Assembly (NCBI GenBank): GCA_023261485.1
Contig: JAHFOY010000011.1
Coordinates: 6,763-30,762, forward strand
Direction of reading: 5' to 3'
Length of the DNA stretch: 24,000 nt
Source of the DNA: Planctomycetota bacterium
GTDB taxonomy: Bacteria; Planctomycetota; Brocadiia; Brocadiales; Brocadiaceae
The position numbers were made by a program, and so were the translations under genes. Numbering within the stretch: the first letter of the stretch is position 1; each line of letters begins with the position of its first letter. The notes under the pieces are model-generated. The model searched no databases. It was not told where the DNA came from and saw nothing but the letters and a program-made list of their open reading frames with translations. Of this stretch, positions 8,029 to 24,000 are shown piece by piece.

Positions 8029-8285
8029 GATTAGATTTAGGCGCTATTGCGAAGGCTGGTACCAGCAAGGCTAATCAAACCGGGAGTTGGAGGAATTATA
8101 AACCAATATTTCACCAGGTAAAATGTATTGGCTGTGGCCTTTGTAAAATCTATTGTCCCGAAGGTTGTGTTACCATGATAGAAAAAAAGAAATACACGGT
8201 CGATTATACATACTGCAAAGGTTGTGGGATTTGTGCCGAGGAATGCTCTTCAAGCGACATCGAAATGATAGTGGAGGAGAAGTAA
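8025..8285 (+). CDS. porD: 2-oxoacid:ferredoxin oxidoreductase, delta subunit (2x[4Fe-4S] ferredoxin)
   Basis: Two CxxCxxCxxxCP-type motifs are present (CIGCGLCKIYCP and CKGCGICAEEC). It has an ATGA overlap with porG. Confidence 0.85.
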   Translation: MRLDLGAIAKAGTSKANQTGSWRNYKPIFHQVKCIGCGLCKIYCPEGCVTMIEKKKYTVDYTYCKGCGICAEECSSSDIEMIVEEK

Positions 8286-9460
8286 TGAGTACTACATTTA
8301 TCGAGGGCTCCATCGCAGTAGCCAAGACCGTGGGTGTCTGCAGGCCGCACGTAATTTCGGCTTACCCTATCACACCGCAAACCCATATTGTAGAACATCT
8401 TTCAGAATTGGTGGCTGACGGAGAGATCAAGGCAGAATATGTCAATGTGGAAAGCGAACACTCCGCCGCATCGGTAGTTCTGGGATCCAGTGCTACAGGG
8501 GCGAGGACGTACACCGCCACCACTTCTCAGGGATTTTTGCTCATGATCGAAGTGCTTTTCAATATTGCCGGGATGCGGCTTCCCGTCGTCATGACCTGCG
8601 TTAACCGCGCCGTGTCTGCCCCAATTAATATCTGGAATGACCAGCAGGATTCCTTAACAGCCCGCGACAGCGGCTGGATACAACTTTATGCCGAAGATAA
8701 CCAGGAAGCAAGCGACATGCACTTGCAGGCATTCAAAATTGCTGAGAATAAAGACATCATGCTCCCTGTCATGGTATGCATGGATGGCTTTGTGCTCACC
8801 CATTCATTTGATCCGGTAGAGCTTATTTCTCAGGAGCAGGCGGACAAATTTCTGCCGCCGTTTAAACCAGAATATTATCTGACACCGAAAAATCCGCTTA
8901 CCCTCGGCACTATGGTAGGTCCTGATGGATACATGGAAACACGCTATTTTATTGAGAAAACAATGCATGCCTCGTTGCAGGTTATCAGCGACGTAGCAGC
9001 CGATTTTCATAACCAATTCGGACGTTTTCAGGGCGGCCTTATTGATACTTATAAGGTAGAAGATGCTACCCTCGTATTGGTAGCGATGGGTTCGATTATT
9101 GGCACAATAAAAGATATTGTGGATGAGCTCAGGGCAAAGGGACAAAAAGTCGGCGTCCTCAAGGTACGTTCATACCGCCCATTTCCAAAAGACGAAATCT
9201 ACAAGGCATTAAGCCACGTCAAAGAGATTGGCGTGGTGGAAAAGGCCGTTTCATTAGGTTACGGCGGCATTCTGGTAAATGAAATAAAGAGCGTATTCTA
9301 CGGTAAACCCAAAACCCCGAAGATCAATGGATTCATTCTGGGGCTGGGCGGCCGGGACATTACCGCAGACACCATACATCAGGTCATCAAAGAAACCGTA
9401 AAGGCCGCATCTGAAGAAAAATTTGTTGGTCTCAACGAAGCATTAATTGGAGGTAAATAA
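8285..9460 (+). CDS. porA: 2-oxoacid:ferredoxin oxidoreductase, alpha subunit
   Basis: I start it at the ATG of the TAATG overlap with the porD stop ([16 protein letters not shown]...YPITPQT...), not at the track start 8153, which would lie in another frame of porD. Confidence 0.85.
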
Positions 9461-9464
9461 ATTC

Positions 9465-10379
9465 ATGTCTACCACAACACTGACTGCCCCGAAGGAACAA
9501 TCATGCACGCTTTTGGCATCAGGCCATACCGCCTGTACCGGATGCGGCGAGGCACTTGCCGCAAAACTCGTACTGGGCGCAGCAGGTTCTGATATAATCG
9601 TAACCGATGCTACAGGATGCCTGGAAGTATTCACTACAAGATTTCCGCAATCATCATGGGAAGTCCCTTTTATCCACTCGTTATTCGAAAATTCGGCTGC
9701 TGTTGCCTCAGGTGTAGAAGTGGCCTTAAAGGCGCTGGGCAGGCAAAATGAGGCAAAGGTTATTGCGCAGGGTGGCGACGGCGGGACGGCAGACATTGGA
9801 TTACAGGCGCTCAGTGGCATGTTAGAAAGGGGACATGATATTCTTTACGTCTGTTACGATAATGAAGCATACATGAATACCGGCGTACAGCGCAGCGGTT
9901 TAACCCCATTTGACTGCATGACGACGACCAGCCCTTGCGGTGAACTTTCCTGGGGAAATAAACACAACAAAAAAGACATGCCCTCCATTGCTGCCGCACA
10001 CGGTATTCCTTACGTTGCAACGGCCTCAGTGGCATTTCCAAAAGACATTGAAAACAAGGTAAAAAAAGCCCTTTCGATAACCGGTCCAAAATATATGCAA
10101 ATCCACTCCCCATGCCCACTCGGATGGAGATCAAATCCTCAACTCACCATCAAAGTAGCTAAATTAGCCGTACAGACGGGACTCTATCCCATCTTCGAAA
10201 TGGAAAACGGCAAGGTAACAAAAGTGAGAAAAGTCACCACTCCAAAAACCCCGGTAGAAGAATATCTGAAAATTCAGGGACGCTTCGCCCATCTCTTCAA
10301 GTCACCGAAGGGAAAGGAAGAGATACAGAAGATACAGGAGATCGCAGACAGAAACGTAGAAAAGTATGGATTGGCATAG
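9465..10379 (+). CDS. porB: 2-oxoacid:ferredoxin oxidoreductase, beta subunit (TPP-binding)
   Basis: GHTACTGCG and [10 protein letters not shown] (TPP-binding GDG) motifs are present. I prefer the ATG at 9465, which has GGAGG upstream, over the TTG at 9447. Confidence 0.85.
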
Positions 10380-10558
10380 AAGCTGTTATTTTAGCTCACC
10401 GCATATTTGTTGCTCATGCAACACCAAGAGGAAAGACTGAACAGTTTTGCCGTAAAATAATTAATTGGGGTAAGCCAGTTTTGACTTCCAATTACAATGA
10501 CAATACCAGACTATTAATATGGGAATAAAGGCTGTCCAACCAGAGGATATATGCTGTA

Positions 10559-11542
10559 TCAGGTAGGCGCTATAAATTCTTTTTCTTGCGTATCGGTATT
10601 TATCAGCTTATTAATGGCGTCCAGCACGGGTTCTGTAGAGTTCTGAAATTTGGCTATGGGATTCACGATCGCAAGGCCACGGTAATATGTAACGAGTCCT
10701 TCTGCAACCTCTGTCATAATTTTGTTAAAGGTATTCCGTTTCTTTGCCCTTGCAAGTTTCACCTCGGGACCTTTATCCCCGGTAATGGGGATTCTTTCAT
10801 AATTGCCAAAATCCATCCGCAGTATATTGATCATACCACCCTGACCAGATAATTGATTGACAATTTCTGCCGAAGGTAACGAGGCGATATATGCTAAAGG
10901 GTAAGTGTAATCTTTGTATCCTTCCTTGTTCACATAAAAATCATTCAGAATACCCAGCGTCTCAAAATACTCTTGCACCCTTGTAAAACATTTTTTATTT
11001 ACCAGCGCCTCCTCTATTTCTTTGACTGGTTTACTTGCAGTTTTTAACTTTCCCAGAATGATGGTGGTAGCAATAGCCCTGTCCTGCTGATAGGTTTTTA
11101 CTTCAATTTGAATGTAATCGCTGCTCACAAACTGCCATAAAAATAGATTACACGTCCTTTCACAGTAAAAAGCAGAACCGGTAAATTTTATGTTTACGGA
11201 GGATATTTCTAATTCTGAAAAGAGGACTTCTAAGGGAAGGATGATCTTCGAAACGGTCATCGCACCGGGAACAATGTTGCCTTTCCGGTGGATGATATTA
11301 TTGTCGTTGGTTACATCAACGAAACGTTCGCCGTGCTGCTTGGAAATTGTATATTCGTGCTTGATTAGAAATTTGTCCCATACCTGCAACCGGCATTCGT
11401 TATGGGAATCATTCTCTAGTATTAAGCCGGGATGCGGCGTGCGCGCCTTTGCATCCCGAAAGCAGATTTTATCGGCCAAAAAACCTTCGACCCGCCTCAT
11501 TGGTATTGAAAATATAGGGGTTTGCGCTCTGCTCATAGACAT
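10559..11542 (-). CDS. Hypothetical protein with an N-terminal MaoC-like/hotdog-fold motif
   Basis: 327-aa ORF. VTNDNNIIHRKGNIVPGAMT resembles the D-x-N-P-I-H...HG motif of MaoC dehydratase-like hotdog domains. I do not recognise the C-terminal half. Confidence 0.5.
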   Translation of the reverse strand: MSMSRAQTPIFSIPMRRVEGFLADKICFRDAKARTPHPGLILENDSHNECRLQVWDKFLIKHEYTISKQHGERFVDVTNDNNIIHRKGNIVPGAMTVSKIILPLEVLFSELEISSVNIKFTGSAFYCERTCNLFLWQFVSSDYIQIEVKTYQQDRAIATTIILGKLKTASKPVKEIEEALVNKKCFTRVQEYFETLGILNDFYVNKEGYKDYTYPLAYIASLPSAEIVNQLSGQGGMINILRMDFGNYERIPITGDKGPEVKLARAKKRNTFNKIMTEVAEGLVTYYRGLAIVNPIAKFQNSTEPVLDAINKLINTDTQEKEFIAPT

Positions 11543-16805: not shown

Positions 16806-17813
16806 ATGGAAAAAGGTTTTTTAGGTGTGGGTTTGGTAAGTCTTACAATTTTTTTGAGCTCTTGTGTGGCCACTCAGACACAAGTAAAGCAAACAAAAGC
16901 CCCCGAATTACAAGTAGAAGTAAAGGCAGAACCGGCTGCACCCGAAGCCGCTGCTCCTGAAGCTCCAGCACCTGAGGCTGCCGCTCCGGCCGTAGAAGAG
17001 GCAAAACCTGCCGAAGCTACTGTTGCTGAACCTGCTGCTCCTGAAGCTGCCGCACCTGAAGCTCCGGCTGCAGAACCCGCTGCTCCTGAAGCTCCAGCGC
17101 CTGAGGCTGCCGCTCCGGCTGCAGAAGAAGCAAAACCCGCTGAAGCTCCTGCTGCTGTGGTACCGGCCGCTCCTGAAGCTCCAGCGCCTGAGGCTGCCGC
17201 TCCGGCTGCAGAAGAAGCAAAACCTGTTGAAGCTCCTGCTGCTGTGGTACCGGCCGCTCCTGAAGCTCCAGCGCCTGAGGCTGCCGCTCCGGCTGCAGAA
17301 GAAGCAAAACCGGCAGAAGAAGCTGTAAAACCCGAGGAGAAAAAGACAAAGGCTTTGCCTTCAGAAAAAGAGGAATCTAAGGCCGAGGCTTTACATCAAT
17401 GTGCCACTTGCAATAAAGAAGTTGGAGAAGGACACGTCTGCGGCGTTACAACGTATTGTCAACAATGCAAGGAAGAAGTTGGCGCTGGTCATATCTGCGA
17501 TTTGACATTCTTTTGCCACGATTGCAAAAAAGAGGTCGGAGATGGCCACGTCTGCAACGTAACGACTTTTTGTCCTAAATGTGAAGAAGAAGTCGGGGCA
17601 GGCCACATCTGCGACGTAACTTATTTCTGCTACGATTGCGAGAAAGAGGTGGGTGACGAACATATCTGCGGCGTCACCCATTTTTGTCCCACCTGCAAGG
17701 CAGAAGTTGGGGAAGGACACGAATGCGGAAAGACGTTCTTCTGCTTTGACTGTGAGAAAGAGGTAGCCAAGGATCATCAACACGAAAAGGCAGCCGAAAA
17801 ACCTGCAAAGTAA
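16806..17813 (+). CDS. Lipoprotein with a Pro/Ala/Glu-rich tandem-repeat linker and seven C-terminal CxxC-x7-HxC repeats
   Basis: The signal peptide carries a lipobox (LTIFLSSC). It is followed by PEAAAPEAPAPEAAAPAAEEAKPAEA repeats and then a 19-aa unit, CxxCxxEVGxGHxCxxTxF, repeated seven times (the last copy is degenerate). A strong terminator lies 29 nt downstream. Confidence 0.85.
   Translation: MEKGFLGVGLVSLTIFLSSCVATQTQVKQTKAPELQVEVKAEPAAPEAAAPEAPAPEAAAPAVEEAKPAEATVAEPAAPEAAAPEAPAAEPAAPEAPAPEAAAPAAEEAKPAEAPAAVVPAAPEAPAPEAAAPAAEEAKPVEAPAAVVPAAPEAPAPEAAAPAAEEAKPAEEAVKPEEKKTKALPSEKEESKAEALHQCATCNKEVGEGHVCGVTTYCQQCKEEVGAGHICDLTFFCHDCKKEVGDGHVCNVTTFCPKCEEEVGAGHICDVTYFCYDCEKEVGDEHICGVTHFCPTCKAEVGEGHECGKTFFCFDCEKEVAKDHQHEKAAEKPAK
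16930..17330 (+). repeat. Tandem 87-bp coding repeat (about 3 near-identical copies at 17079-17320 plus one diverged upstream copy)
   Basis: taccggccgctcctgaagctccagcgcctgaggctgccgctccggctgcagaagaagcaaaacc recurs with a period of 87 nt (for example 17161 versus 17248). It encodes the 29-aa unit PAAPEAPAPEAAAPAAEEAKPxEAPAAVV. Confidence 0.85.
17400..17798 (+). repeat. Seven tandem 57-bp coding units, each encoding a Cys2-His-Cys motif
   Basis: Protein-level period of 19 aa: CATCNKEVGEGHVCGVTTY / CQQCKEEVGAGHICDLTFF / CHDCKKEVGDGHVCNVTTF / CPKCEEEVGAGHICDVTYF / CYDCEKEVGDEHICGVTHF / CPTCKAEVGEGHECGKTFF / CFDCEKEVAKDHQHEKAAE. Confidence 0.85.
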
Positions 17814-17999: not shown

Positions 18000-19190
18000 C
18001 TAATTTTTGCTAAAAAATCGTAGTATTCTCTGAAATTTCCTCAGTGCAACCCTTAGGCGCAGGGTACTCTGTCTTCCTTGTTCAATCCCTTCCATGCGCG
18101 CTATGACCTCTCTGGCAGGAGCTACGACGCGTAAAATAAATTTTATTCTTTTCTGCCACCCGGAAATGTTAGAAAAGTAAAAAAAATAGCAAAGATTTTC
18201 CTTTCGCTTACCCTGCCTGAGCAATCTGGAGAAAATCCTTTCTCCCAACCCTTTGCGCCGAGGATAGAGGGTTTCCAAGACTTCACGAGGTACACTGGCG
18301 CCAAAATATTCTTTGCTCAACCATAAACTATAAAACAAAGGCCTTCTCAATTGAAACTCCTCTGCCTCATTGCAAAGCTTTTCCCAATCTAATTTTTCTT
18401 TCCAATGGTTTATCACCCGGTGTATATCCCATACGTGGATTAGCAGATTGTAAGAATGCCTCATGGCATGTTCTGAGAGGTGAAGGAGTTGATGATGGAG
18501 GGCGAGGCACAGCGCATCTGCCTGTCGTATCTTTAAGGGAACTGCCTCCTTCCACAGCTTATCCGCATTAATTTTTTCTGCATAAATATAATTAGGAAGC
18601 GCATCATTAACCCAGTGCCAGTGCAGATGCAGGAAAAGCGGAGAACCCCTTTTCCTGTATAACTGACTGTTATAACAGTTAGATACCCGGAAAGAATCCA
18701 ATCGGACAAAAGACCGATACCCTAATTGGGACAGAACTTTATCAAGCTGCGGAACCTCTGCTGGTTTTACAAGGATGTCTACATCGCCCAGTCCGCGAAT
18801 CCCGAAGTCCTCATACACAGAGGAGAGGAGGGATGCCCCTTTCAAGATGATAATAGGATTATCCAGCATCCGGAGTAAAGCAGCCAATTCTTCAAGGATG
18901 CGGACATTTCTCCCCCAATTATTTATGTATTCCTTTTTGAGTTGTGCTCTAATTGGCGGAGGCATGTCAATCCCCCTCTTTATCAGGCCTTTGTAAAGGA
19001 GGAAAGAAAGCCCTTCTTTTTGGGAGACGCTTAACGCCTCTGTCCAGGAAGGCGAAATAGTTACATTATAGGAGGGATTTAATACCTGCGAGATGAATTT
19101 CAGGGCTTCGTTTCGCCCGGTCTCGTTTGAACATAGCGTGGCGCAGGCCGACTGGAACATATTCTCAAATTTACCCTGTGTTTCTAACAT
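18000..19190 (-). CDS. Nucleotidyltransferase-family protein (resembles the uncharacterised NTP_transf_5-type family found in RiPP clusters)
   Basis: 396-aa ORF. LKGASLLSSVYEDFGIRGLGDVDILV carries the G-x-GDxD-type nucleotidyltransferase motif. It lies directly downstream of, and on the same strand as, the rSAM/PqqD cassette. Confidence 0.65.
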   Translation of the reverse strand: MLETQGKFENMFQSACATLCSNETGRNEALKFISQVLNPSYNVTISPSWTEALSVSQKEGLSFLLYKGLIKRGIDMPPPIRAQLKKEYINNWGRNVRILEELAALLRMLDNPIIILKGASLLSSVYEDFGIRGLGDVDILVKPAEVPQLDKVLSQLGYRSFVRLDSFRVSNCYNSQLYRKRGSPLFLHLHWHWVNDALPNYIYAEKINADKLWKEAVPLKIRQADALCLALHHQLLHLSEHAMRHSYNLLIHVWDIHRVINHWKEKLDWEKLCNEAEEFQLRRPLFYSLWLSKEYFGASVPREVLETLYPRRKGLGERIFSRLLRQGKRKENLCYFFYFSNISGWQKRIKFILRVVAPAREVIARMEGIEQGRQSTLRLRVALRKFQRILRFFSKN

Positions 19191-19288
19191 TCGAGGATGT
19201 ATGCACTATATGTGTTTTTCATGTATCAGTAGAATACCCCATAAAATCTTGCTGTGAATAAACCAAAAACAGATTAGGCCTTCGGCAA

Positions 19289-19358
19289 CTTTTCAATGTA
19301 GAGCGAAGAGACCCTTCGCTCTACAAACCGCATAAATAAAATGAATCCTATACAATCA
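19289..19358 (-). repeat. Copy B of the ~70-nt dispersed hairpin element (partner at 2573..2643)
   Basis: The reverse complement reads tgattgtataggattcattttatttatgcggtttgtagagcgaagggtctcttcgctctacattgaaaag, with the hairpin at 19298..19324. The element overlaps the last three codons and the TAG stop of the rSAM gene 19348..20448, and it coincides with the GC-content switch. Confidence 0.85.
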
Positions 19359-20448
19359 GGTTGTCTGCCCGCGCGTGAGCGACCTGGCAGAAGTACGGAG
19401 TGGCGCCATCCAGCTCGCCGGTCTCCAGGTGCGCGTGGGCTGGGCACCACAGGCACAGGTTCACCAGAGGGCAGCTTCGGCAGGAATCAAGATATTCCTT
19501 GCGATGCGACCTCATATCCAGGACGCGGGGGACGAAATTAAACCAGGCATCGGCCAGATTGCCTTTCCGCAGGTCGTAGACCGTATTTGCCTGGCAGAGG
19601 GACGAGCAGAGGCGGAACGTGCCGTCGTAACCGACGTTAAAACTGCCGTTCCCTGCGCCGCAATGGAATAGATGATCGCACCCCTGGTGCGTGAATTCGT
19701 CATTAATGAGCGTGCTGCAGTTCTGCTGCATGGATTTCATCCGCTCCCCGTCCGCCCGTTCCAGGGCCACGACCTCCCGGGGCGTCAACCGTTCTGCATT
19801 TATCTCCCCGTTTCGCATCGGGTCGCCGTCATAACGCAGGTGAAGCTGGGGGTCGAAGCGGGAATAGTCCTTCGTTTTCTCACGGCAGAATGCCGCTATG
19901 GCGCCCTGCTCGGCCAGGTTGGACCGTATCGCAATTGCCTTGAGGCGGACCCGCACGCCGTTATTCATCAGCATATTCAGGCCGTTCATGAACATGCCGA
20001 ATGAGCCTGGTTTCCGGGTTACGCGCTCGTAGGTCTTCCGCGTTACACCGTAGACAGTAACCTCCACGTCTCGTGGCGGGTATTTCCTGAACAGAGCCAC
20101 ATGTCCTTCGTTTATCATCGTGGCGTTGGTGAATACGGAGACCAGCAGCCCCTTGCGCCTGAGCATGAGGTATATCTCCGGGAAATCTGGACGGATCAGC
20201 GGCTCGCCGCCGGTGATCAGGCACCACATGGCGCCGAGCTTGGCCGCCTGTTCCGCAATATCGCCAATTTCTGCGACGGTCAGTTCCCGTTCGCGGGCTG
20301 CCTTGTCGCCTTCGGGCAGGTTAATGTAGCAATGGCGGCAGTCGTTGTCGCACCGCGCCGTCACCTCGATATCAAAAGAGAGCGGTACACGCTTATCCCT
20401 CAATTTGTCCCAGAGAGAAAACTGCTGGATTTCGATGGTGCTGGTCAT
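19348..20448 (-). CDS. Radical SAM/SPASM-domain peptide maturase (PqqE-like), paralogue 1
   Basis: CDNDCRHC (CxxxCxxC) lies near the N-terminus. The C-terminal SPASM region is HCGAGNGSFNVGYDGTFRLC ... CRSCPLVNLCLWCPAHA. AAGGAG sits 6 nt upstream of the ATG at 20448. Confidence 0.9.
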   Translation of the reverse strand: MTSTIEIQQFSLWDKLRDKRVPLSFDIEVTARCDNDCRHCYINLPEGDKAARERELTVAEIGDIAEQAAKLGAMWCLITGGEPLIRPDFPEIYLMLRRKGLLVSVFTNATMINEGHVALFRKYPPRDVEVTVYGVTRKTYERVTRKPGSFGMFMNGLNMLMNNGVRVRLKAIAIRSNLAEQGAIAAFCREKTKDYSRFDPQLHLRYDGDPMRNGEINAERLTPREVVALERADGERMKSMQQNCSTLINDEFTHQGCDHLFHCGAGNGSFNVGYDGTFRLCSSLCQANTVYDLRKGNLADAWFNFVPRVLDMRSHRKEYLDSCRSCPLVNLCLWCPAHAHLETGELDGATPYFCQVAHARADNLIV

Positions 20449-21280
20449 TATAACTCCTTACTATGATCTTTGCCGCCTGTCGCTGAAGGGCATCGTCCAG
20501 TCCCATCCCGCGATAGCGTAAGCGCACGTGCGATTCTTCAATGCCCCATACATCTCCTGCGGCGCGCGCAAACGTTGTCCATGCAGCGGGATCGCGGCCA
20601 TCGTTCATGTGCAGCGCCAACGTCCAACGATCTATGATTCGGCCCTTCCACTCCATACTGGGATCGAAGTCGTCCGGCGCAAATGGACGGTATACCGCAT
20701 CTCCAAGCGTTCTGTTCAGCAGAACTCGGACGGTATATAAAATACGCGGCCTCAGGAGCGAGAAACAACAGCGCGCAATCGTCCCATACGGCGACATGTC
20801 CTGTACGCGTGCTAGTATGCGCACCAGCCACAAACGCAAACGCTGTTTCGTGTCCGTTAAAATCAGGCGCGCTGCGTAATACCGGCGCACTAGCCAGGGA
20901 TACCTTGCCGGCCGCAGCGGCACGGGCTTCCCTCTGCGCTCAATGGCAATGACAATGCCGAGCAGGTCTTCGTTAAAGGTAGGACCGTCGCTCCCTTCAT
21001 TTGCGCGGTCGGGCCTGGTGATGACATAATCTCTTCCATCGCACCTGCCCTTGCCGACGACGCGATGTCCGAACAGAAAACCCTCTCCGCGACATACCGC
21101 GATATCGCCCACCGAAACATCGCCGGCTGCCCGTGACTGAATCTTCACAACATCGCCCTGGCGAACGGTGGGATACATGCACGCCCCCCACACGCGAAAG
21201 GTAATGCCATCGCGGTCAGCCAGCGCCCGTCCGATTCGGAGGGAAGCCAGGATGAGACTATTGTTTTTTTTGACTGGCAA
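20393..21280 (-). CDS. S24/S26-fold (signal-peptidase/SipW-like) peptidase-like protein with an unknown C-terminal domain
   Basis: The N-terminal ~110 aa align by eye to SPase I boxes: WGACMYPTVRQGDVV (versus SGSMEPT...GD), FGHRVVG (versus the HRV of ER/archaeal-type SPases), and ITRPDRANEGSDGP...LLGIV. The ORF overlaps pqqD by 23 nt and rSAM-1 by 56 nt. Confidence 0.6.
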   Translation of the reverse strand: MPVKKNNSLILASLRIGRALADRDGITFRVWGACMYPTVRQGDVVKIQSRAAGDVSVGDIAVCRGEGFLFGHRVVGKGRCDGRDYVITRPDRANEGSDGPTFNEDLLGIVIAIERRGKPVPLRPARYPWLVRRYYAARLILTDTKQRLRLWLVRILARVQDMSPYGTIARCCFSLLRPRILYTVRVLLNRTLGDAVYRPFAPDDFDPSMEWKGRIIDRWTLALHMNDGRDPAAWTTFARAAGDVWGIEESHVRLRYRGMGLDDALQRQAAKIIVRSYNDQHHRNPAVFSLGQIEG

Positions 21281-21572
21281 CGAGGATGCCCCTCCTCACC
21301 ATCTCGCCCGCAAAGCCAAGGGCATCGTTTTCAATCTCATGGAGCGGCGTGTCGAACTCGGCAACCAGCGCTGTTGCCACATCCTTCAGCGTCCGATGCC
21401 CGTCCAGCTTCTGCCAGATGGCCTGGCCTGTATCGTTCAGGGTATAAAGTTCATCATCCGCATCCCCGATCCCGGCGACCAGCGGGACGATTATGATCTC
21501 GCCTTCAATCTCCCGCGCTACCACATCATCGGACGGGAAGCATACTGCATCGAGAGTAATATCCGTTTCCAT
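21258..21572 (-). CDS. PqqD-family protein (RiPP recognition element)
   Basis: 104-aa ORF. VVAREIEGEIIIVPL...LYTLNDTGQAIWQKLDGHRTLKDVATALVAEFDTPLHEIENDALGFAGEMVRRGILV is a textbook PqqD/RRE pattern. GGAGG sits 8 nt upstream of the ATG. Confidence 0.85.
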   Translation of the reverse strand: METDITLDAVCFPSDDVVAREIEGEIIIVPLVAGIGDADDELYTLNDTGQAIWQKLDGHRTLKDVATALVAEFDTPLHEIENDALGFAGEMVRRGILVASQKKQ

Positions 21573-21590
21573 AAAAACAACCTCCGTTCA

Positions 21591-21613
21591 TTTGACGTTC
21601 AGGAATTTCAAAC
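21591..21613 (+). repeat. 23-nt motif, copy 3 (tttgacgttcaggaatttcaaac), inverted relative to copies 1 and 2
   Basis: It matches 20 of 23 positions of the reverse complement of 22082..22104. It ends about 19 nt upstream of the PqqD start codon, in operon direction. Confidence 0.7.
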
Positions 21614-21803
21614 ACCCCCCATCATCCCTTTCTCGCGGATATCTCAGGGTTCGACTTTACTCACCGCAAGCGCGAAAAGGACAACGGATCAAGGGCAGAA
21701 TGCCTAAGCTTGCATACTGTGTCACAATATATTCAACCGGCCATATATAGCATAATCAATTTGCATAATACAATATTTGTATTGAAACCCTGCTGAAAAT
21801 TAA

Positions 21804-21983
21804 TTATGACAGAACCTGTGCGCTGCAGTTATTGGTGCAAGCATTGTTATTCCTACACGCACTATTTTTGTTACTTGGCCCGGTGCCCCCAATACTCGAC
21901 TTACAAGCCACCAAGACATCCTCTTCCGGTTTGTTTCTCACCAGAACAATCAGTTCCGGTTTACGCCATTCTTTTTTTTGCAT
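21804..21983 (-). CDS. Candidate RiPP precursor peptide, 59 aa (not in the supplied ORF track)
   Basis: Manual reverse-complement translation gives MQKKEWRKPELIVLVRNKPEEDVLVACKSSIGGTGPSNKNSACRNNNACTNNCSAQVLS*. AAGGAGG lies 7 nt upstream of the ATG. It shares the strand of the flanking maturase genes, sits between rSAM-2 and PqqD, and has a charged leader followed by a Cys/Asn-rich C-terminus. Confidence 0.7.
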   Translation of the reverse strand: MQKKEWRKPELIVLVRNKPEEDVLVACKSSIGGTGPSNKNSACRNNNACTNNCSAQVLS

Positions 21984-21990
21984 ATAGACA

Positions 21991-21995
21991 CCTCC
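21991..21995 (-). promoter_or_regulatory. Shine-Dalgarno sequence of the candidate precursor gene
   Basis: The minus strand reads aaaaaGGAGGtgtctatATG, a core GGAGG with a 7-nt spacer. Confidence 0.6.
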
Positions 21996-22081
21996 TTTTT
22001 TTAACTTTTTACGCCACTAAGGCAACAAGGCACAAAGAGACACACTCCTAACCCCCTCTTTTTGGAGGGGAATCAAAAAAA

Positions 22082-22104
22082 GTTTGAAATTCCTGTACAT
22101 TAAA
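22082..22104 (+). repeat. 23-nt motif, copy 1 (gtttgaaattcctgtacattaaa)
   Basis: It is similar to copy 2 at 22237..22259 and inverted relative to copy 3 at 21591..21613. A hairpin follows directly. Confidence 0.7.
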
Positions 22105-22108
22105 CTAG

Positions 22109-22144
22109 GTTGGGTTTTAAAAGACAAAACCCAACTACTTTTTT
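22109..22144 (+). terminator. Hairpin plus T-run, a terminator-like element for plus-strand (antisense) transcription
   Basis: gttgggtttt-aaaagac-aaaacccaac is followed by tactttttt. On the minus (operon) strand no U-run follows the same hairpin. Confidence 0.45.
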
Positions 22145-22147
22145 ACC

Positions 22148-22210
22148 CACCCCTAAATCCCCTCCCAAGAGGGGACTTCTTAAATTCCCCTCTTGAGAGG
22201 GGTAGGGGTG
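22148..22210. other. Predicted three-way-junction-like structure: outer stem cacccct/aggggtg enclosing two cccctc-N4-gagggg hairpins
   Basis: Hairpins lie at 22159..22174 (loop ccaa) and 22187..22202 (loop ttga), with outer pairing 22148-54 to 22204-10. A third cccctc/gagggg hairpin lies at 22053..22070. Confidence 0.5.
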
Positions 22211-22236
22211 TGTTTATCCATTACATATTTTAAAAA

Positions 22237-22259
22237 GATTGAAATTCCTATGCATTAAA
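22237..22259 (+). repeat. 23-nt motif, copy 2 (gattgaaattcctatgcattaaa)
   Basis: It is a direct repeat of copy 1 with four mismatches. The hairpin gctgc-cttcg-gcagc (22264..22278) and the string aactatttt follow it. Confidence 0.65.
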
Positions 22260-22330
22260 TTAGGCTGCCTTCGGCAGCAACTATTTTCCTCCCGTCAATC
22301 CCGAAGTGTTTAATCGGGAATCCATAAGGC

Positions 22331-23494
22331 TTATCTGCCTCTCACCCTTTCCCGCCAATCCTTCACCTCCCATCCGTGTTCATTCTCCCCAAGCCATCCC
22401 ATGAACCGCGCCTGGGCATGCGCCACGTCGCACAGGTACTCTACCGGCGTGTCCAGAGTACCGTGCTCTGTCCACGACTTGGCGGGGCACTGCTCGCACA
22501 TGCCTTTCAGGAAACAGCGGGCGCATCGGCAGAGATATTCAGGGTTCGTAGCCCGTATCTCGCGGAGGCGGGAGAAGCCGTCAAGCGCCTTTTGCAGGGG
22601 CGAACGTCCGTTCGCTCCCACCCTTACAACGTCTGACATCAGCTCCGGGGCGCGGACACCCATGCAGGGCTGCGCCCTTCCGTATGCGTCTATGTTCACC
22701 CCATTGCCTGCGCCGCAGGCGAACAGACTGTCTCCTTGTGGCCCCATGAACTTCGATGCGAACCCGGACATGTCCTTTCGGTATCCCGCCTCGTCCCGAG
22801 TCAGCGCCGAAATCCCATCCAGGGGAGATATGCGCAGCGATTTTATCTGTTTGTTCTTCTCCTCATTGTCACGGCTGTTGCGGAGATCGAAGAACATGGA
22901 GTATTGCGGGGGCTTTGTCATCCAGGGGATGGTCATGGCCCATTCTTCAAACTCTTCTATCTCCGCCCTGTTCTGCGGAAGGAGGGCCGACTTGACGACA
23001 AAAGGAATCCCGTGCTCCAGCAGTAGCTGAATGCCCGTCCAGCACTGATCAAAGGAGCCTGGCGAGCGGGTAGCCGCCTCGTAAGACTCCTCATGCATGC
23101 CGTATACGGTGATCTCGATGGCCACTTTTGGAGGGATGCGGGCAAGCAAGCCGGCCAGCCGCTCGTTGATGAGGCGGGCGTTGGTGAAGAGGAGGACCTT
23201 GATCCCCAACCTCCGCGCATAGAGGTACAGATCCTCGAAATCCGGCCTCAAAAGCGGCTCTCCACCGGTGAAGCGGACCTGCATGCACCCCAGATCTGCG
23301 GCCTGCTTCAGGATATCCTTCACCTGCTCCGTGGTCATCTCGCGCCTGCGCGTATTCTGGTCGTCTGAGGGAAGATTGATGCAGCAGTGGACACAGTCGT
23401 TGTTGCACCGCTCCGTCAACTCCATATCCAGGCTCCCCAGCCGCGGGAGGATCGGCTTTGGCTGTTGCTTTACCCGTCTGACAAATTCGCTCAT
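22331..23494 (-). CDS. Radical SAM/SPASM-domain peptide maturase (PqqE-like), paralogue 2
   Basis: CNNDCVHC (CxxxCxxC) is present. The SPASM region is ACGAGNGVNIDAYGRAQPC ... CRCARCFLKGMCEQCPAKSW. Its C-terminal YLCDVAHAQA parallels YFCQVAHARA of paralogue 1. Confidence 0.9.
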   Translation of the reverse strand: MSEFVRRVKQQPKPILPRLGSLDMELTERCNNDCVHCCINLPSDDQNTRRREMTTEQVKDILKQAADLGCMQVRFTGGEPLLRPDFEDLYLYARRLGIKVLLFTNARLINERLAGLLARIPPKVAIEITVYGMHEESYEAATRSPGSFDQCWTGIQLLLEHGIPFVVKSALLPQNRAEIEEFEEWAMTIPWMTKPPQYSMFFDLRNSRDNEEKNKQIKSLRISPLDGISALTRDEAGYRKDMSGFASKFMGPQGDSLFACGAGNGVNIDAYGRAQPCMGVRAPELMSDVVRVGANGRSPLQKALDGFSRLREIRATNPEYLCRCARCFLKGMCEQCPAKSWTEHGTLDTPVEYLCDVAHAQARFMGWLGENEHGWEVKDWRERVRGR

Positions 23495-23533
23495 TACTGA
23501 TCCTTTTTCTATTCTATATCCTTCGCTTTCTTC

Positions 23534-24000
23534 CTATCCTGCCTGTGCGAGCTTTTCCAACTCAGGCACTATTACCCCGCTCCTGTCGAACCGCATGGTA
23601 TAACATGGCGCTTCGTTCACGATCTGCTCCAGCACGTCCATCACCTTCTGCCACCACTCCGCTGTCACCATCGGCTTGATGAGGGTCGCCAGCAAACGCT
23701 TCCAGATATCCTTCCGGTCGGTCAGGGGAAGGATATCGTTCTGCAGGCTCTGCTCCAGAAAGAGGATCGCACGAAGAGGGGCTGAAGCGCCGGAGACGTC
23801 GGACACATCGCCGTGGCTCCATGTGCCGTGGACGCGGAAACCTTCATCCCACCGCCTGACAATGTTGCGGTCATCGCAGAGTATCTCGATTTTTATGGAC
23901 GAATGGCCATTCGCCTCTACGGCGGCGTTTTTCAATAGCGTTACCGTTGTAGACTTCCCTGCCTCGGAATGGCCGACAAAGAGGAGTCCCTGTCCGTTCA
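23534..24000 (-). CDS. HPr-kinase-like P-loop protein, C-terminal part (N-terminus lies beyond the window end)
   Basis: The reading frame stays open upstream of the track's TTG start. My manual translation of 23936-24000 gives ...NGQGLLFVGHSEAGKSTTVTL-LKNAAVEANG..., a GxSxxGKST Walker A as in the HprK/P C-terminal domain and RiPP-associated HprK-like kinases. Confidence 0.7.
   Translation of the reverse strand, partial: NGQGLLFVGHSEAGKSTTVTLLKNAAVEANGHSSIKIEILCDDRNIVRRWDEGFRVHGTWSHGDVSDVSGASAPLRAILFLEQSLQNDILPLTDRKDIWKRLLATLIKPMVTAEWWQKVMDVLEQIVNEAPCYTMRFDRSGVIVPELEKLAQAG

Follow-up and report, generated by a model that had tools for sequence, protein, structure and literature searches.

The C-terminal Ser of the lasso peptides paeninodin and pseudomycoidin is phosphorylated by HprK-like kinases, and PsmN subsequently attaches hexose to the phosphate in pseudomycoidin (PMC6993621). 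Ribosomal natural products are seldom phosphorylated (PMC12639078). In PMC4289311, HPr kinase appears only in lasso clusters. The locus analyzed here, a 24,000-nt stretch (hereafter the window) of contig JAHFOY010000011.1 from a Brocadiaceae bacterium of the phylum Planctomycetota, raises the question of whether a kinase and a nucleotidyltransferase could decorate the last residue of a peptide of another kind. An initial annotation had placed an HprK-like P-loop protein at the right end of the window (23534-24000), a nucleotidyltransferase-family gene at the other end of the same cassette and a Ser-ended precursor between them, and proposed that both enzymes may act on a peptide crosslinked by radical SAM (rSAM) enzymes.

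A predicted rSAM/SPASM-ScmC fusion enzyme

The flagged stretch (23534..24000) belongs to an open reading frame that, according to ORF calling and translation, has its stop end at 23534 on the minus strand and runs off the window at 24000. The full gene, recovered from three independent assemblies (L001:7922-9961), encodes 679 aa; its first 525 codons lie outside the window, with the start approximately 1.57 kb past the window end. The window thus holds the 3' end of the gene (154 codons and the stop). A Walker-A P-loop (GHSEAGKST) and a CDDRN motif lie within these last 154 residues, and both motifs, as GHSxAGKST and CDDR(N), are invariant across 35 aligned relatives. The rSAM1 half of the product matches PF04055 (E 1.5e-21), while the part in the window corresponds to a C-terminal ScmC domain (PF27840). 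The P-loop coding sequence of the initial annotation is therefore genuine, but it is a domain of a 679-aa fusion rather than a separate gene. From these translations and matches, we predict that 23534-24000 encodes an ATP-binding ScmC domain located at the C-terminus of an rSAM/SPASM-ScmC fusion, and that this fusion enzyme opens a seven-gene RiPP cassette.

The family of this domain was then considered. PF27840 is listed in precomputed annotation for the 679-aa product and for 120 of 120 listed homologues; since our own hmmscan of the product against a Pfam copy returned no ScmC match, this membership is that of the precomputed annotations alone. The NCBIfam model for ScmC (TIGR04249) matched the window domain at E 4.6e-8 and 32.8 bits, below its cut-off of 125, and ten other family members likewise fell under this cut-off. 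For these ten members, ScmC and HprK-type kinases were the only family models matched, with best E-values of 6e-6 for HprK_rel_B, 1e-3 for hpr-ser and 0.0059 for HprK_rel_A. The HprK-related kinase A model (TIGR04352, cut-off 200 bits) gave zero match for the window ScmC domain even at E up to 10. An hhalign comparison with a true HprK-related kinase A reached a probability of 92% (E 5.8e-7) over the LH..A...GxSxxGKST block, and a ScmC profile searched against PDB reached HprK structures only at E 0.095. Sequence searches with the domain against Pfam and PDB yielded P-loop/ABC noise only and were set aside.

For the fold, a homologue with 74% identity (P0002) was modeled with AF2 (pLDDT 88.6). 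This model matched a PEP carboxykinase (PEPCK) with E 1.9e-8 and a probability of 1.0, and its best 50 matches were all PEP carboxykinases (TM 0.35-0.44). In the P0002 model and the invariant motifs, a PEPCK-like fold is combined with a Walker-A P-loop and, following the next strand, an acidic pair. As modeled, the ScmC domain is a member of the PEPCK/HprK superfamily. The 154-aa fragment modeled on its own gave no significant match in the fold search (best E 0.035; TM 0.42 and E 0.29 against HprK/P 1kkm). This fragment opens at the P-loop, so the strand or strands preceding the P-loop are missing and a model of the full domain is required. The HprK likeness noted initially is one of superfamily and fold, but it is remote, with only marginal sequence matches to HprK-type models. 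A paeninodin-type HprK is not what the locus encodes, as the domain has no TIGR04352 match and is fused to an rSAM enzyme. Of note, enzymes with a PEPCK-fold P-loop need not be protein Ser kinases.

Cassette enzymes and the precursor family

The seven genes are arranged in the order fusion, second rSAM, 59-aa precursor, PqqD RiPP recognition element (RRE), signal-peptidase-I-like (SpI-like) peptidase, third rSAM/SPASM and NTP_transf_5. The second rSAM protein, rSAM2 (22331..23494, minus strand, 387 aa; PF04055 E 1e-25), has a Cys-rich C-terminal region that is SPASM-like by eye only, and no SPASM-domain match was obtained for it. The one Pfam match to SPASM (PF13186) came from rSAM3 (19348..20448, minus strand, 366 aa; PF04055 E 2.6e-21) and was weak, at 18.6 vs 21.5 bits. 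CxxxCxxC is visible in the translations of rSAM1, rSAM2 and rSAM3, which all match PF04055, and these proteins qualify as predicted radical SAM/SPASM peptide maturases. The cassette hence contains three rSAM domains, and not one or two as earlier wording had implied. A discrete PqqD-family RRE (21258..21572, minus strand, 104 aa; PF05402 E 2.2e-14) also matches the PqqD, ScmD and lasso-PqqD models, each below cut-off. The neighboring 295-aa protein (20393..21280, minus strand) is an archaeal-type SpI-like protein of the S24/S26 fold (TIGR02228 E 3.1e-9, below cut-off; PF00717 match weak) and is presumed to be the leader peptidase. Proteins of this type aligned as two classes, G.SM.P and G.CMYP, and the window protein reads GACMYPT, with Cys replacing the usual Ser nucleophile, and has a GHRV box.

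The precursor gene (21804..21983, minus strand) is preceded by a strong ribosome-binding site (Shine-Dalgarno AAGGAGG) and encodes 59 aa ending in AQVLS. Its leader contains W-R-K-P-E-L and EE-x-VL-xx, and the predicted core, CKSSIGGTGPSNKNSACRNNNACTNNCSAQVLS, follows the pattern C1-K...C2...C3-xx-C4-x5-Ser-COOH. We collected 104 distinct homologues, 99 of them complete, as well as 12 more from databases; no NCBIfam model covers this family (WxxPEL leader, C-K...C-x5-S). The C-terminal residue is Ser in 95 of the 99 complete precursors and Thr in the other four, which is far beyond chance given a Ser frequency of 0.127 in the core, and the terminal Ser is the most conserved core residue. The 12 database sequences behave similarly (ten ending in Ser, one in Thr and one truncated). 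The Ser-ended precursor proposed at the outset was thus borne out by its homologues. The last Cys stands at position -7 in 93/99 complete precursors (Cys-x5-Ser). EE.VL..CK, with a small residue at -1, is invariant. In the leader, WxxPx[LIVMFA] was found in 94/99; the leader thereby carries the [W/Y]xxPx[L/I/V] motif to which the RREs of lasso and linear polyphosphorylated peptide (LPP) clusters respond. Because the precursors nearly always end in Cys-x5-Ser, decoration of the last Ser seems plausible. The number of cysteines varies with the fusion enzyme: loci without rSAM1 have 3-Cys precursors only (6/6), while 70 of 90 precursors with rSAM1 have four (Fisher p 4e-5).

A low-GC intergenic region (21984..22330) lies 5' of the precursor gene. 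A repeat search found two copies of a 36-nt direct repeat (22077-22112 and 22232-22267) and a 20-nt inverted repeat (22159-22202), which may be regulatory sites. Neither a sigma-70-like promoter nor an Rfam match was found near the precursor gene. Of note, the rigid Cys-x5-Ser spacing is not explained by simple phosphorylation alone.

A lasso peptide cluster is very improbable

An ordinary, paeninodin-like lasso cluster of the kinase type, with its cyclase and protease just past the window, could also account for the PqqD RRE, the kinase-like domain, the NTP_transf_5 gene and the WxxPxL motif of the leader, which is typical of binding by lasso RREs. The sequence beyond position 24000 was checked for the missing lasso genes, as the initial annotation had suggested. 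The approximately 7.9 kb upstream of the fusion encodes two HD-GYP proteins, a PEP-CTERM-type ATPase, an FxLYD protein, PSP1 and a tRNA synthetase. Pfam matches of all genes revealed no asparagine-synthetase-like (C) or transglutaminase-like (B) gene in the 21-kb locus (L001/L002), and the lasso B and C families are also missing from the genes that 80 related loci have in common. The peptidase of the cassette is SpI/S24-like and not transglutaminase-like. Moreover, with cleavage before Cys1 (CKSSIGGTGPS...), core positions 7-9 are Gly-Thr-Gly, with no Asp or Glu for a macrolactam ring. In the absence of a B or C gene, the lasso hypothesis was rejected for the 21-kb locus, and we consider it to have next to no chance of being correct. 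The proposal of a non-lasso scaffold therefore stood.

Distribution of the cassette and history of the nucleotidyltransferase gene

We found the cassette at 80 loci across phyla, in many anaerobes both bacterial and archaeal. A first neighbor cluster of 79 loci from an all-against-all search was discarded as an antisense-ORF artefact of the rSAM genes. The family comprises 211 clusters at 50% identity with E <= 1e-30 and ranges over many anaerobic bacterial phyla and methanogenic archaea. Among 33 well-covered loci, the fusion is present in 28, rSAM2 in 32, rSAM3 in 31, PqqD in 32, the SpI-like gene in 32, an ABC exporter in 22 and NTP_transf_5 in 18, the latter being absent from 15. In many lineages, the NTP_transf_5 gene overlaps rSAM3 or comes after an exporter gene located behind rSAM3.

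The gene that ends the cassette in the window (18000..19190, minus strand, 396 aa) is a clear NTP_transf_5 nucleotidyltransferase-family member, as annotated initially (PF14907 E 2.5e-44, 152.2 bits vs 31.2). Its catalytic DxD is intact as GDVD and conserved in all 32 aligned relatives; an E.HW motif is conserved too. Its base composition sets it apart from the genes next to it, with a GC content of 44% vs 55-59% for the core enzymes and approximately 40% for the flanks. In 150-nt windows, GC drops from ~0.58 to ~0.35-0.44 at 19191..19347, the gap between the rSAM3 and NTP_transf_5 genes and the right boundary of the high-GC block. The gene was also considered as a chimeric recombination junction, which was dismissed since GC and identity to orthologues are uniform along it; this uniformity locates the boundary within the 157-nt gap. 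The GC discontinuity indicates that the nucleotidyltransferase was not co-acquired with the cassette but is a resident gene here.

Related Brocadiaceae carry orthologues of this gene (63-67% identity) in cassettes of the HPr-rel-A type. In these syntenic relatives, the orthologue follows a PqqD protein that passes TIGR04353, a 304-aa HprK-related kinase A (TIGR04352 E 2.8e-36, 125 bits, cut-off 200) and a precursor ending in GLS with a YxxPxI leader. At the syntenic Ca. Wunengus locus (L085), PqqD occupies 8126-8383, the kinase 8380-9294, the precursor 9528-9794 and NTP_transf_5 10001-11137. The presence of orthologous genes beside kinase A and GLS-ended precursors ties the transferase to Ser-terminal peptides and to a kinase. 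From this synteny and the GC profile, we infer that a high-GC rSAM cassette was acquired horizontally and replaced the PqqD/kinase A/precursor trio at this site, while the resident nucleotidyltransferase gene was kept. Given its host-like GC, it may lie next to the cassette as a remnant of the system that was displaced. The kinase-like domain and the nucleotidyltransferase that had been proposed as a tailoring pair both occur in the window, but the latter is found in only 18/33 loci and was not co-acquired here.

Proposed pathway

We propose that the cassette directs the synthesis of a RiPP crosslinked by rSAM enzymes, that the ScmC domain phosphorylates its C-terminal Ser and that the nucleotidyltransferase possibly extends this Ser further, with the rSAM core acquired horizontally (probability of about 0.5). 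All of this chemistry is putative, and the evidence for phosphorylation of the Ser is comparative: the invariable Ser or Thr at the end of the precursors and the syntenic HPr-rel-A system. The discrete PqqD RRE would bind the WxxPEL leader of the 59-aa precursor, and the three rSAM/SPASM enzymes would crosslink the core cysteines, most likely as thioethers, the fused rSAM1 serving the extra Cys of the C-xx-C pair. As a PEPCK/HprK-superfamily P-loop kinase, the ScmC domain would transfer phosphate from ATP to the hydroxyl group of the invariant C-terminal Ser, exactly six residues past the last Cys. The SpI-like peptidase, here a Cys variant, would cut the leader off just before Cys1-Lys2, and the downstream NTP_transf_5 may attach another group to the phosphorylated Ser, in the manner of PsmN in pseudomycoidin. 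Of a resident HPr-rel-A/LPP-like system, the rSAM core would have displaced the RRE, the HprK-related kinase A and the Ser-terminal precursor, leaving the nucleotidyltransferase in place. Against phosphorylation speaks that the ScmC domain misses every curated cut-off. The Ser3 specificity of LppK, the inactivity of LppN (both described below) and the absence of NTP_transf_5 from 15/33 loci also weigh against the proposed pathway.

Phosphorylation of the Ser could also be transient. Class III and IV lanthipeptides are made by kinase-then-elimination chemistry, and ScmC might similarly phosphorylate the Ser for the phosphate to be eliminated, leaving a C-terminal dehydroalanine, no stable phospho-Ser and an NTP_transf_5 unrelated to the Ser. 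The dehydroalanine would then be captured by the Cys at -7 in a seven-residue lanthionine-type ring or hydrolyzed to a C-terminal amide. The position of the last Cys at -7 in 93/99 precursors, which suggests a ring or fixed geometry over a free tail, the large excess of Ser over Thr (95 vs 4) and the dispensability of NTP_transf_5 in 15/33 loci fit such a route. However, the cassette showed no lyase-like domain, the fixed spacing could equally reflect recognition by the bifunctional rSAM1-ScmC, and by analogy to HPr-rel-A at this site the phosphate would be kept for the transferase to act on. We regard elimination as unlikely.

The terminal Ser may instead serve radical chemistry or recognition, for example as thioether acceptor from Cys-7 or as a C-terminal anchor for an rSAM enzyme. 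ScmC would then be an ATP-dependent chaperone or scaffold, or act on another substrate, and NTP_transf_5 in this window would be a leftover of the displaced HPr-rel-A system that plays no part in the cassette. Sacti- and ranthipeptide synthases commonly join Cys to defined acceptor residues, and this explanation would agree with the remote HprK likeness of ScmC, its fusion to an rSAM enzyme in 28/33 loci and the GC discontinuity that sets the nucleotidyltransferase apart. It accounts less readily for the invariance of the P-loop Lys/Ser-Thr and DD pair, whose equivalents are required for PsmK activity (PMC6993621), for the translational coupling of NTP_transf_5 to rSAM3, or its separation from it by only an exporter gene, in several phyla, and for the use of Ser-terminal precursors by the displaced system as well. 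We rate this explanation as improbable, and stable phosphorylation of the terminal Ser by ScmC is the reading retained below.

Comparison with known systems

To our knowledge, SynChlorMet (SCM; ScmD TIGR04248, ScmC TIGR04249, ScmE TIGR04250 and ScmF TIGR04251 of TIGRFAMs/NCBIfam) has been defined in silico only and was never characterized. It shares with the present cassette an ScmC-type P-loop protein (PF27840), a PqqD-family protein, multiple PqqE-like rSAM/SPASM enzymes and an occurrence in anaerobic bacteria and methanogens. Few NCBIfam models were reached by the proteins studied here: ScmC ranked first for the kinase-like domain, ScmD, ScmE and ScmF ranked lower for the PqqD and rSAM proteins, and every SynChlorMet cut-off was missed by far (ScmC 32.8/125, ScmD 29.3/100, ScmE 77/400 and ScmF 89.3/400 bits). 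Unlike in SynChlorMet, ScmC is here usually fused to a third rSAM enzyme, the cassette further includes an SpI-like peptidase, NTP_transf_5 and, frequently, an ABC exporter, and a precursor family is identifiable. The cassette is thus related to the in silico SynChlorMet cassette yet distinct from it.

In LPP clusters, which have no lasso cyclase, an HprK-like kinase and an NTP transferase occur together with an RRE and a leader peptidase of the SpI type (Popov et al., Nat Commun 2026, PMC13381572). They resemble the present cassette in their [Y/W]xxPx[L/V/I] leader motif and frequent link to polysaccharide loci, and in a comparison of gene content with the LPP set, the SpI-like protein (E 3e-9, below cut-off), the RRE and NTP_transf_5 were present while the kinase-like domain was remote. 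The MsbA-like exporter of the LPP set is absent from this window, an exporter being found in 22/33 related loci. In contrast to the present cassette, LPP clusters occur in Bacillota and have no rSAM enzymes (none mentioned in PMC13381572), and the three rSAM enzymes found here do not fit the LPP definition of having no other primary modification enzyme. The stand-alone HprK-like LPP kinase polyphosphorylates Ser3 of the core and not the C-terminal residue; LppK did not accept Thr (PMC13381572). LPP cores are variable and lack a Cys pattern, and of the LPP leader consensus (YxxPxVLxHQxIxFETxxS) only the WxxPxL part is common to both, the rest reading VLVR..PEE.VL..CK here. LppN was inactive in the sole LPP system assayed (PMC13381572). 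Both PsmN and LppN, which may belong to PF14907, are termed uncharacterised NTP transferases in their papers (PMC6993621, PMC13381572).

Further parallels are the paeninodin/pseudomycoidin and HPr-rel-A (TIGR04352, TIGR04353, NTP_transf_5) systems, which also have a Ser-ended precursor and a nucleotidyltransferase-family enzyme. In the paeninodin/pseudomycoidin type, the terminal Ser is phosphorylated by a P-loop kinase for which a DD pair is essential, and a transferase extends the phosphate. In related Brocadiaceae, this chromosomal site is held by a bona fide HPr-rel-A member without cyclase, and the orthologous transferase is common to both. The present cassette differs from paeninodin/pseudomycoidin clusters by having no cyclase or B protease, a kinase-like domain of the ScmC type and not of TIGR04352 that is fused to rSAM, and a Cys-rich peptide presumably crosslinked by radical chemistry. 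With sactipeptide and ranthipeptide maturases that have PqqD-like RREs (for example AlbA, CteB, PapB) it shares SPASM rSAM enzymes, an RRE and Cys-rich precursors, and the number of rSAM enzymes tracks that of cysteines in this family. Known systems of that kind are nevertheless without a kinase-like domain, an SpI-type leader peptidase or a conserved C-terminal Ser. Literature searches for HprK/HPr kinase with radical SAM, SPASM or RiPP, and for SynChlorMet/ScmC/E/F, retrieved nothing relevant. The initial view that the combination is uncharacterised holds as far as rSAM enzymes are concerned, with no paper found joining them to it, but a kinase/NTP-transferase pair acting on a non-lasso peptide has a precedent in the LPPs (PMC13381572).

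Implications for Ser-terminal peptides

Until 2026, the pair of HprK-like kinase and NTP-transferase was known only from lasso peptides, and the cassette described here would carry this tailoring logic over to rSAM-crosslinked peptides. Tentatively, a [W/Y]xxPxL-reading RRE, a PEPCK/HprK-fold kinase and NTP_transf_5 might form a portable module for tailoring C-terminal Ser tails, present on at least three unrelated scaffolds (lasso, linear LPP and radical-SAM-crosslinked) and with parts exchangeable in situ, a generalization that we hold as possible though doubtful. If so, the phospho-Ser may be glycosylated or otherwise passed on to the machinery for exopolysaccharides frequently encoded next to these cassettes. 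As the kinase is fused to rSAM, Cys-x5-Ser crosslinking and phosphorylation of the last residue would be coupled on one polypeptide. Orphan ScmC-type proteins would gain a concrete substrate candidate in the invariant C-terminal Ser of the newly delineated precursor family. Finally, the in situ swap of an HPr-rel-A system for an rSAM cassette, as it appears to have occurred in this Brocadiaceae bacterium with the transferase kept, would represent a natural experiment.

The ScmC domain is part of a radical SAM fusion enzyme

The minus-strand ORF at the window edge has its stop at 23534 and is still open at 24000. Its 154 in-window residues start with NGQGLLFVGHSEAGKSTTV, a Walker-A P-loop, and also contain LCDDRN. 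We retrieved the full locus through the neighbouring radical SAM protein in public assemblies, which yielded four contigs, the longest being 64.8 kb (GCA_052360605.1). On this longer contig of the same locus (L001; other L handles denote loci from other assemblies or genomes), the complete ORF has 679 codons (L001:7922-9961), with approximately 1.57 kb of the gene outside the window. Residues 1 to ~360 correspond to a radical SAM/SPASM enzyme (PF04055, E 1.5e-21) and the C-terminal ~310 residues to an ScmC domain (PF27840, precomputed match). Thus, what the initial annotation took for a separate HprK-like protein turns out to be the C-terminal part of a larger fusion enzyme, here called rSAM1-ScmC.

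At the sequence level, the ScmC domain appears to resemble HprK only barely. Its top NCBIfam match was ScmC of the SynChlorMet (SCM) cassette (TIGR04249, E 4.6e-8, 32.8 bits versus a cut-off of 125), and HprK-related kinase B matched with an E value of 0.016. In the NCBIfam search, ten further family members matched only ScmC and HprK-type models, with best E values of 6e-6 (HprK_rel_B), 1e-3 (HPr(Ser) kinase) and 6e-3 (HprK_rel_A). For a 74%-identical homologue modelled with AF2 (pLDDT 88.6), the top 50 fold matches were all PEP carboxykinases (best E 1.9e-8, probability 1.0), with modest TM values of 0.35-0.44; a search with a model of the 154-residue in-window fragment alone gave no significant match. 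PEPCK shares its P-loop superfamily with the catalytic domain of HprK/P. At the level of the predicted fold, the "HprK-like" label does apply. Moreover, when the family profile was aligned by hhalign with a genuine HprK-related kinase A, the probability was 92% across the LH..A...GxSxxGKST block. The P-loop and a DD pair are invariant across the family, and the pseudomycoidin kinase PsmK requires the equivalent DD pair (PMC6993621).

Composition and spread of the cassette

All cassette genes lie on the minus strand. The fusion gene (>24000-23534; ORF plus full-length gene in L001) is followed by rSAM2 (23494-22331; PF04055, E 1e-25), a 59-aa precursor with a strong RBS (21983-21804), a PqqD RRE (21572-21258; PF05402, E 2.2e-14), an SpI/S24-like protein (21280-20393; TIGR02228, E 3e-9, below cut-off), rSAM3/SPASM (20448-19348; PF04055, E 2.6e-21) and NTP_transf_5 (19190-18000; PF14907, E 2.5e-44), the latter bearing out the nucleotidyltransferase-family gene annotated there. 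Ahead of the precursor gene, the low-GC spacer (21984-22330) contains two direct repeats of 36 nt (22077-22112 and 22232-22267), which share 86% identity and are spaced 155 nt apart, as well as an inverted repeat of 20 nt (22159-22202); no sigma-70-like promoter or Rfam match was found in this spacer. A putative lipoprotein gene (16806-17813, plus strand) carries an 87-nt tandem repeat coding for Ala/Pro/Glu-rich units, then about eight CxxC...EVGxGHxC repeats (weak double-zinc-ribbon match). Its product differs in size across assemblies and relatives (335, 306, 367, 305 and 409 aa).

Upstream of the fusion gene are genes for two HD-GYP proteins, a PEP-CTERM-type ATPase, an FxLYD protein, PSP1 and a tRNA synthetase. 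Since neither a lasso cyclase nor a B protease is encoded among these upstream genes, the lasso-cluster reading fails the test that the initial annotation had set for it and was discarded, and the proposed non-lasso scaffold stands. The two HD-GYP (HD_5) genes are in tandem ahead of the cassette, past the window end (L001:5497-7854), a position at which the syntenic relatives carry a single such gene; the GC content of the additional copy is like that of the host.

The 90%-clustered protein collection contained at least 1010 relatives of the ScmC domain, and the 50%-clustered library 211 representative clusters with E values no higher than 1e-30. Scanning one genome per species, we found 80 loci in Acidobacteriota, Desulfobacterota, Chloroflexota, Planctomycetota, Chlorobiaceae, Synergistota, WOR-3 and others, including the archaea Methanothrix, Methanolinea and Methanoregula. 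Window proteins were searched against six-frame ORFs of these loci, and components were counted in the 33 loci that extend 6 kb or more on each side. rSAM1 and ScmC shared a single reading frame in 28 of the 33; rSAM2, PqqD and the SpI-like peptidase were each present in 32, rSAM3 in 31, an ABC exporter in 22, NTP_transf_5 in 18 and Wzc/Wza polysaccharide-export genes in 11. Related cassettes are often flanked by Wzc-like (16 loci) or Wza-like (9 loci) genes or an ABC exporter (31 loci), and a few contain methyltransferase or sulfotransferase genes; on the window's own contig, the PEP-CTERM-type ATPase lies upstream. This link to polysaccharide loci echoes reports for lasso clusters and for those of linear polyphosphorylated peptides (LPP).

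Precursor family and leader processing

We identified 104 distinct homologues of the precursor, 99 of them complete. The leader motif W-x-x-P-x-[LIVMFA], present in 94 of the 99, is of the type read by lasso and LPP RREs (PMC13381572), and is followed by a nearly invariant R..PEE.VL..C-K. The core pattern is C1-K-x14-17-C2-x3-9-C3-x2-3-C4-x5-Ser. Cys1 is preceded by a small residue (A, G, T, S or V), with Leu at position -3, which fits signal-peptidase-type cleavage, and we infer that such an enzyme may cut the leader directly before Cys1.

The cassette's SpI-like peptidase (20393-21280, minus strand) has GACMYPT where signal peptidases have SMxPT, Cys replacing the Ser nucleophile, and retains the His of the (G/S)HR box. 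Among SpI relatives found by phmmer, the nucleophile was Cys in 14 and Ser in 19 (duplicate loci L001, L002 and L004 counted); the observation takes in the related loci L018, L009, L027, L033, L061, L050, L045, L047, L058 and L065. These features suggest that an archaeal-type signal peptidase, in a Cys/His variant, serves as the RiPP leader peptidase. In 27 related loci, the Ser-type SpI peptidase carries a fused GNAT acetyltransferase domain (example loci for GNAT fusions or flanking genes: L023:4767-5849, L027:4741-7194, L006:13457-14665 and L057:6901-8757).

The window's precursor ends in AQVLS, and the final residue was Ser in 95 and Thr in 4 of the 99 complete precursors. With a core Ser frequency of only 0.127, this excess is not due to chance. 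Twelve more precursors from the protein collection ended in Ser (10) or Thr (1) or were truncated (1). Hence, the C-terminal Ser first pointed out in a single peptide reflects a family-wide rule. In 93 of the 99, position -7 holds the last Cys, and so rigid a Cys-x5-Ser spacing would also allow for alternatives in which the C-terminal tail forms a ring, besides tailoring of the Ser itself.

Cysteine number also varied with enzyme content. The six loci in which ScmC stands alone and rSAM1 is absent (L010, L011, L022, L043, L044 and L083), from different phyla, had only three-Cys precursors lacking C3 (6/6), while four Cys were found in 70 of 90 precursors where rSAM1 is present (Fisher p 4e-5, counts uncorrected for phylogeny). 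These counts suggest one crosslink per rSAM enzyme, with the ScmC-fused rSAM1 acting beside the C-terminal tail.

Replacement of a resident system

Core enzyme genes have a GC content of 55-59% (GC3 60-74%) and flanking genes ~40%; the NTP_transf_5 and precursor genes are at 44% and 45%. The step falls in a 157-nt gap near 19300, and the block at 19300-24000 has sharp steps at both ends relative to the ~40% GC genome. The nearest NTP_transf_5 homologues (63-67% identity over their entire length) come from MAGs of Brocadiaceae, Ca. Wunengus sp. YC65 among them, with flanking genes matching those of the window on both sides and different genes between HD-GYP and the transferase. Besides NTP_transf_5, the cassette at these sites (L085:8126-11137, L086:8493-11239, L088:7347-11173) encodes an 85-aa PqqD passing the "HPr-rel-A system" model (TIGR04353, 36.2 bits versus 35), a 304-aa HprK-related kinase A (TIGR04352, E 2.8e-36, 125 bits, under the 200-bit cut-off) and an 83-88 aa precursor with a Y-x-x-P-x-I motif and a C-terminus of KRGLS, KQGLS or PGGLS. 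These precursors have an acidic-then-basic tail ending in GLS. No lasso cyclase was present in any syntenic Brocadiaceae locus compared, and no SpI peptidase was recognised in the L085, L086 and L088 cassettes; L088 has an additional 267-aa protein without a family match. This compact cassette appears to be the equivalent, in Planctomycetota, of the LPP system of Bacillota.

The GC step, together with synteny with the HPr-rel-A loci, indicates replacement in situ. An LPP-like system resident in the window's lineage lost its RRE, kinase and Ser-terminal precursor to an rSAM cassette acquired horizontally, and kept its transferase. NTP_transf_5 thus did not arrive with the incoming block, and the replacement ties it to Ser-terminal peptides and an HprK-type kinase. 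The Planctomycetota MAG L007 presents the same picture, with a 91%-identical fusion protein and the same GC contrast (57% versus 38%). In Acidobacteriota and Desulfobacterota loci, cassette GC equals that of the flanks, making a donor of that kind plausible. In other loci, NTP_transf_5 belongs to the operon of such cassettes, overlapping rSAM3 (L058, L065, L068, L042) or ~1.7-2.1 kb after it (L010, L016, L028, L039, L043, L046, L078).

Proposed tailoring of the C-terminal Ser

In pseudomycoidin, PsmK phosphorylates the C-terminal Ser and PsmN then puts one or two hexoses on the phosphate (PMC6993621), and the LPP kinase polyphosphorylates core Ser3 (PMC13381572). The LPP paper mentions no radical SAM enzymes, whereas the window's cassette has three, and the literature outside subscription-only sources yielded no paper about the SynChlorMet cassette or an HprK/ScmC-rSAM combination. 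We rate the cassette as one of SCM-type rSAM enzymes to which tail tailoring of the LPP/lasso type is joined. The terminal Ser would be the target of kinase-type tailoring, as proposed, and three independent lines of comparison support this: the Ser is invariant, the leader, RRE, SpI and transferase toolkit is shared, and the HPr-rel-A system is syntenic. The rSAM1-ScmC cassette is a good lead for genome mining and is open to direct testing.
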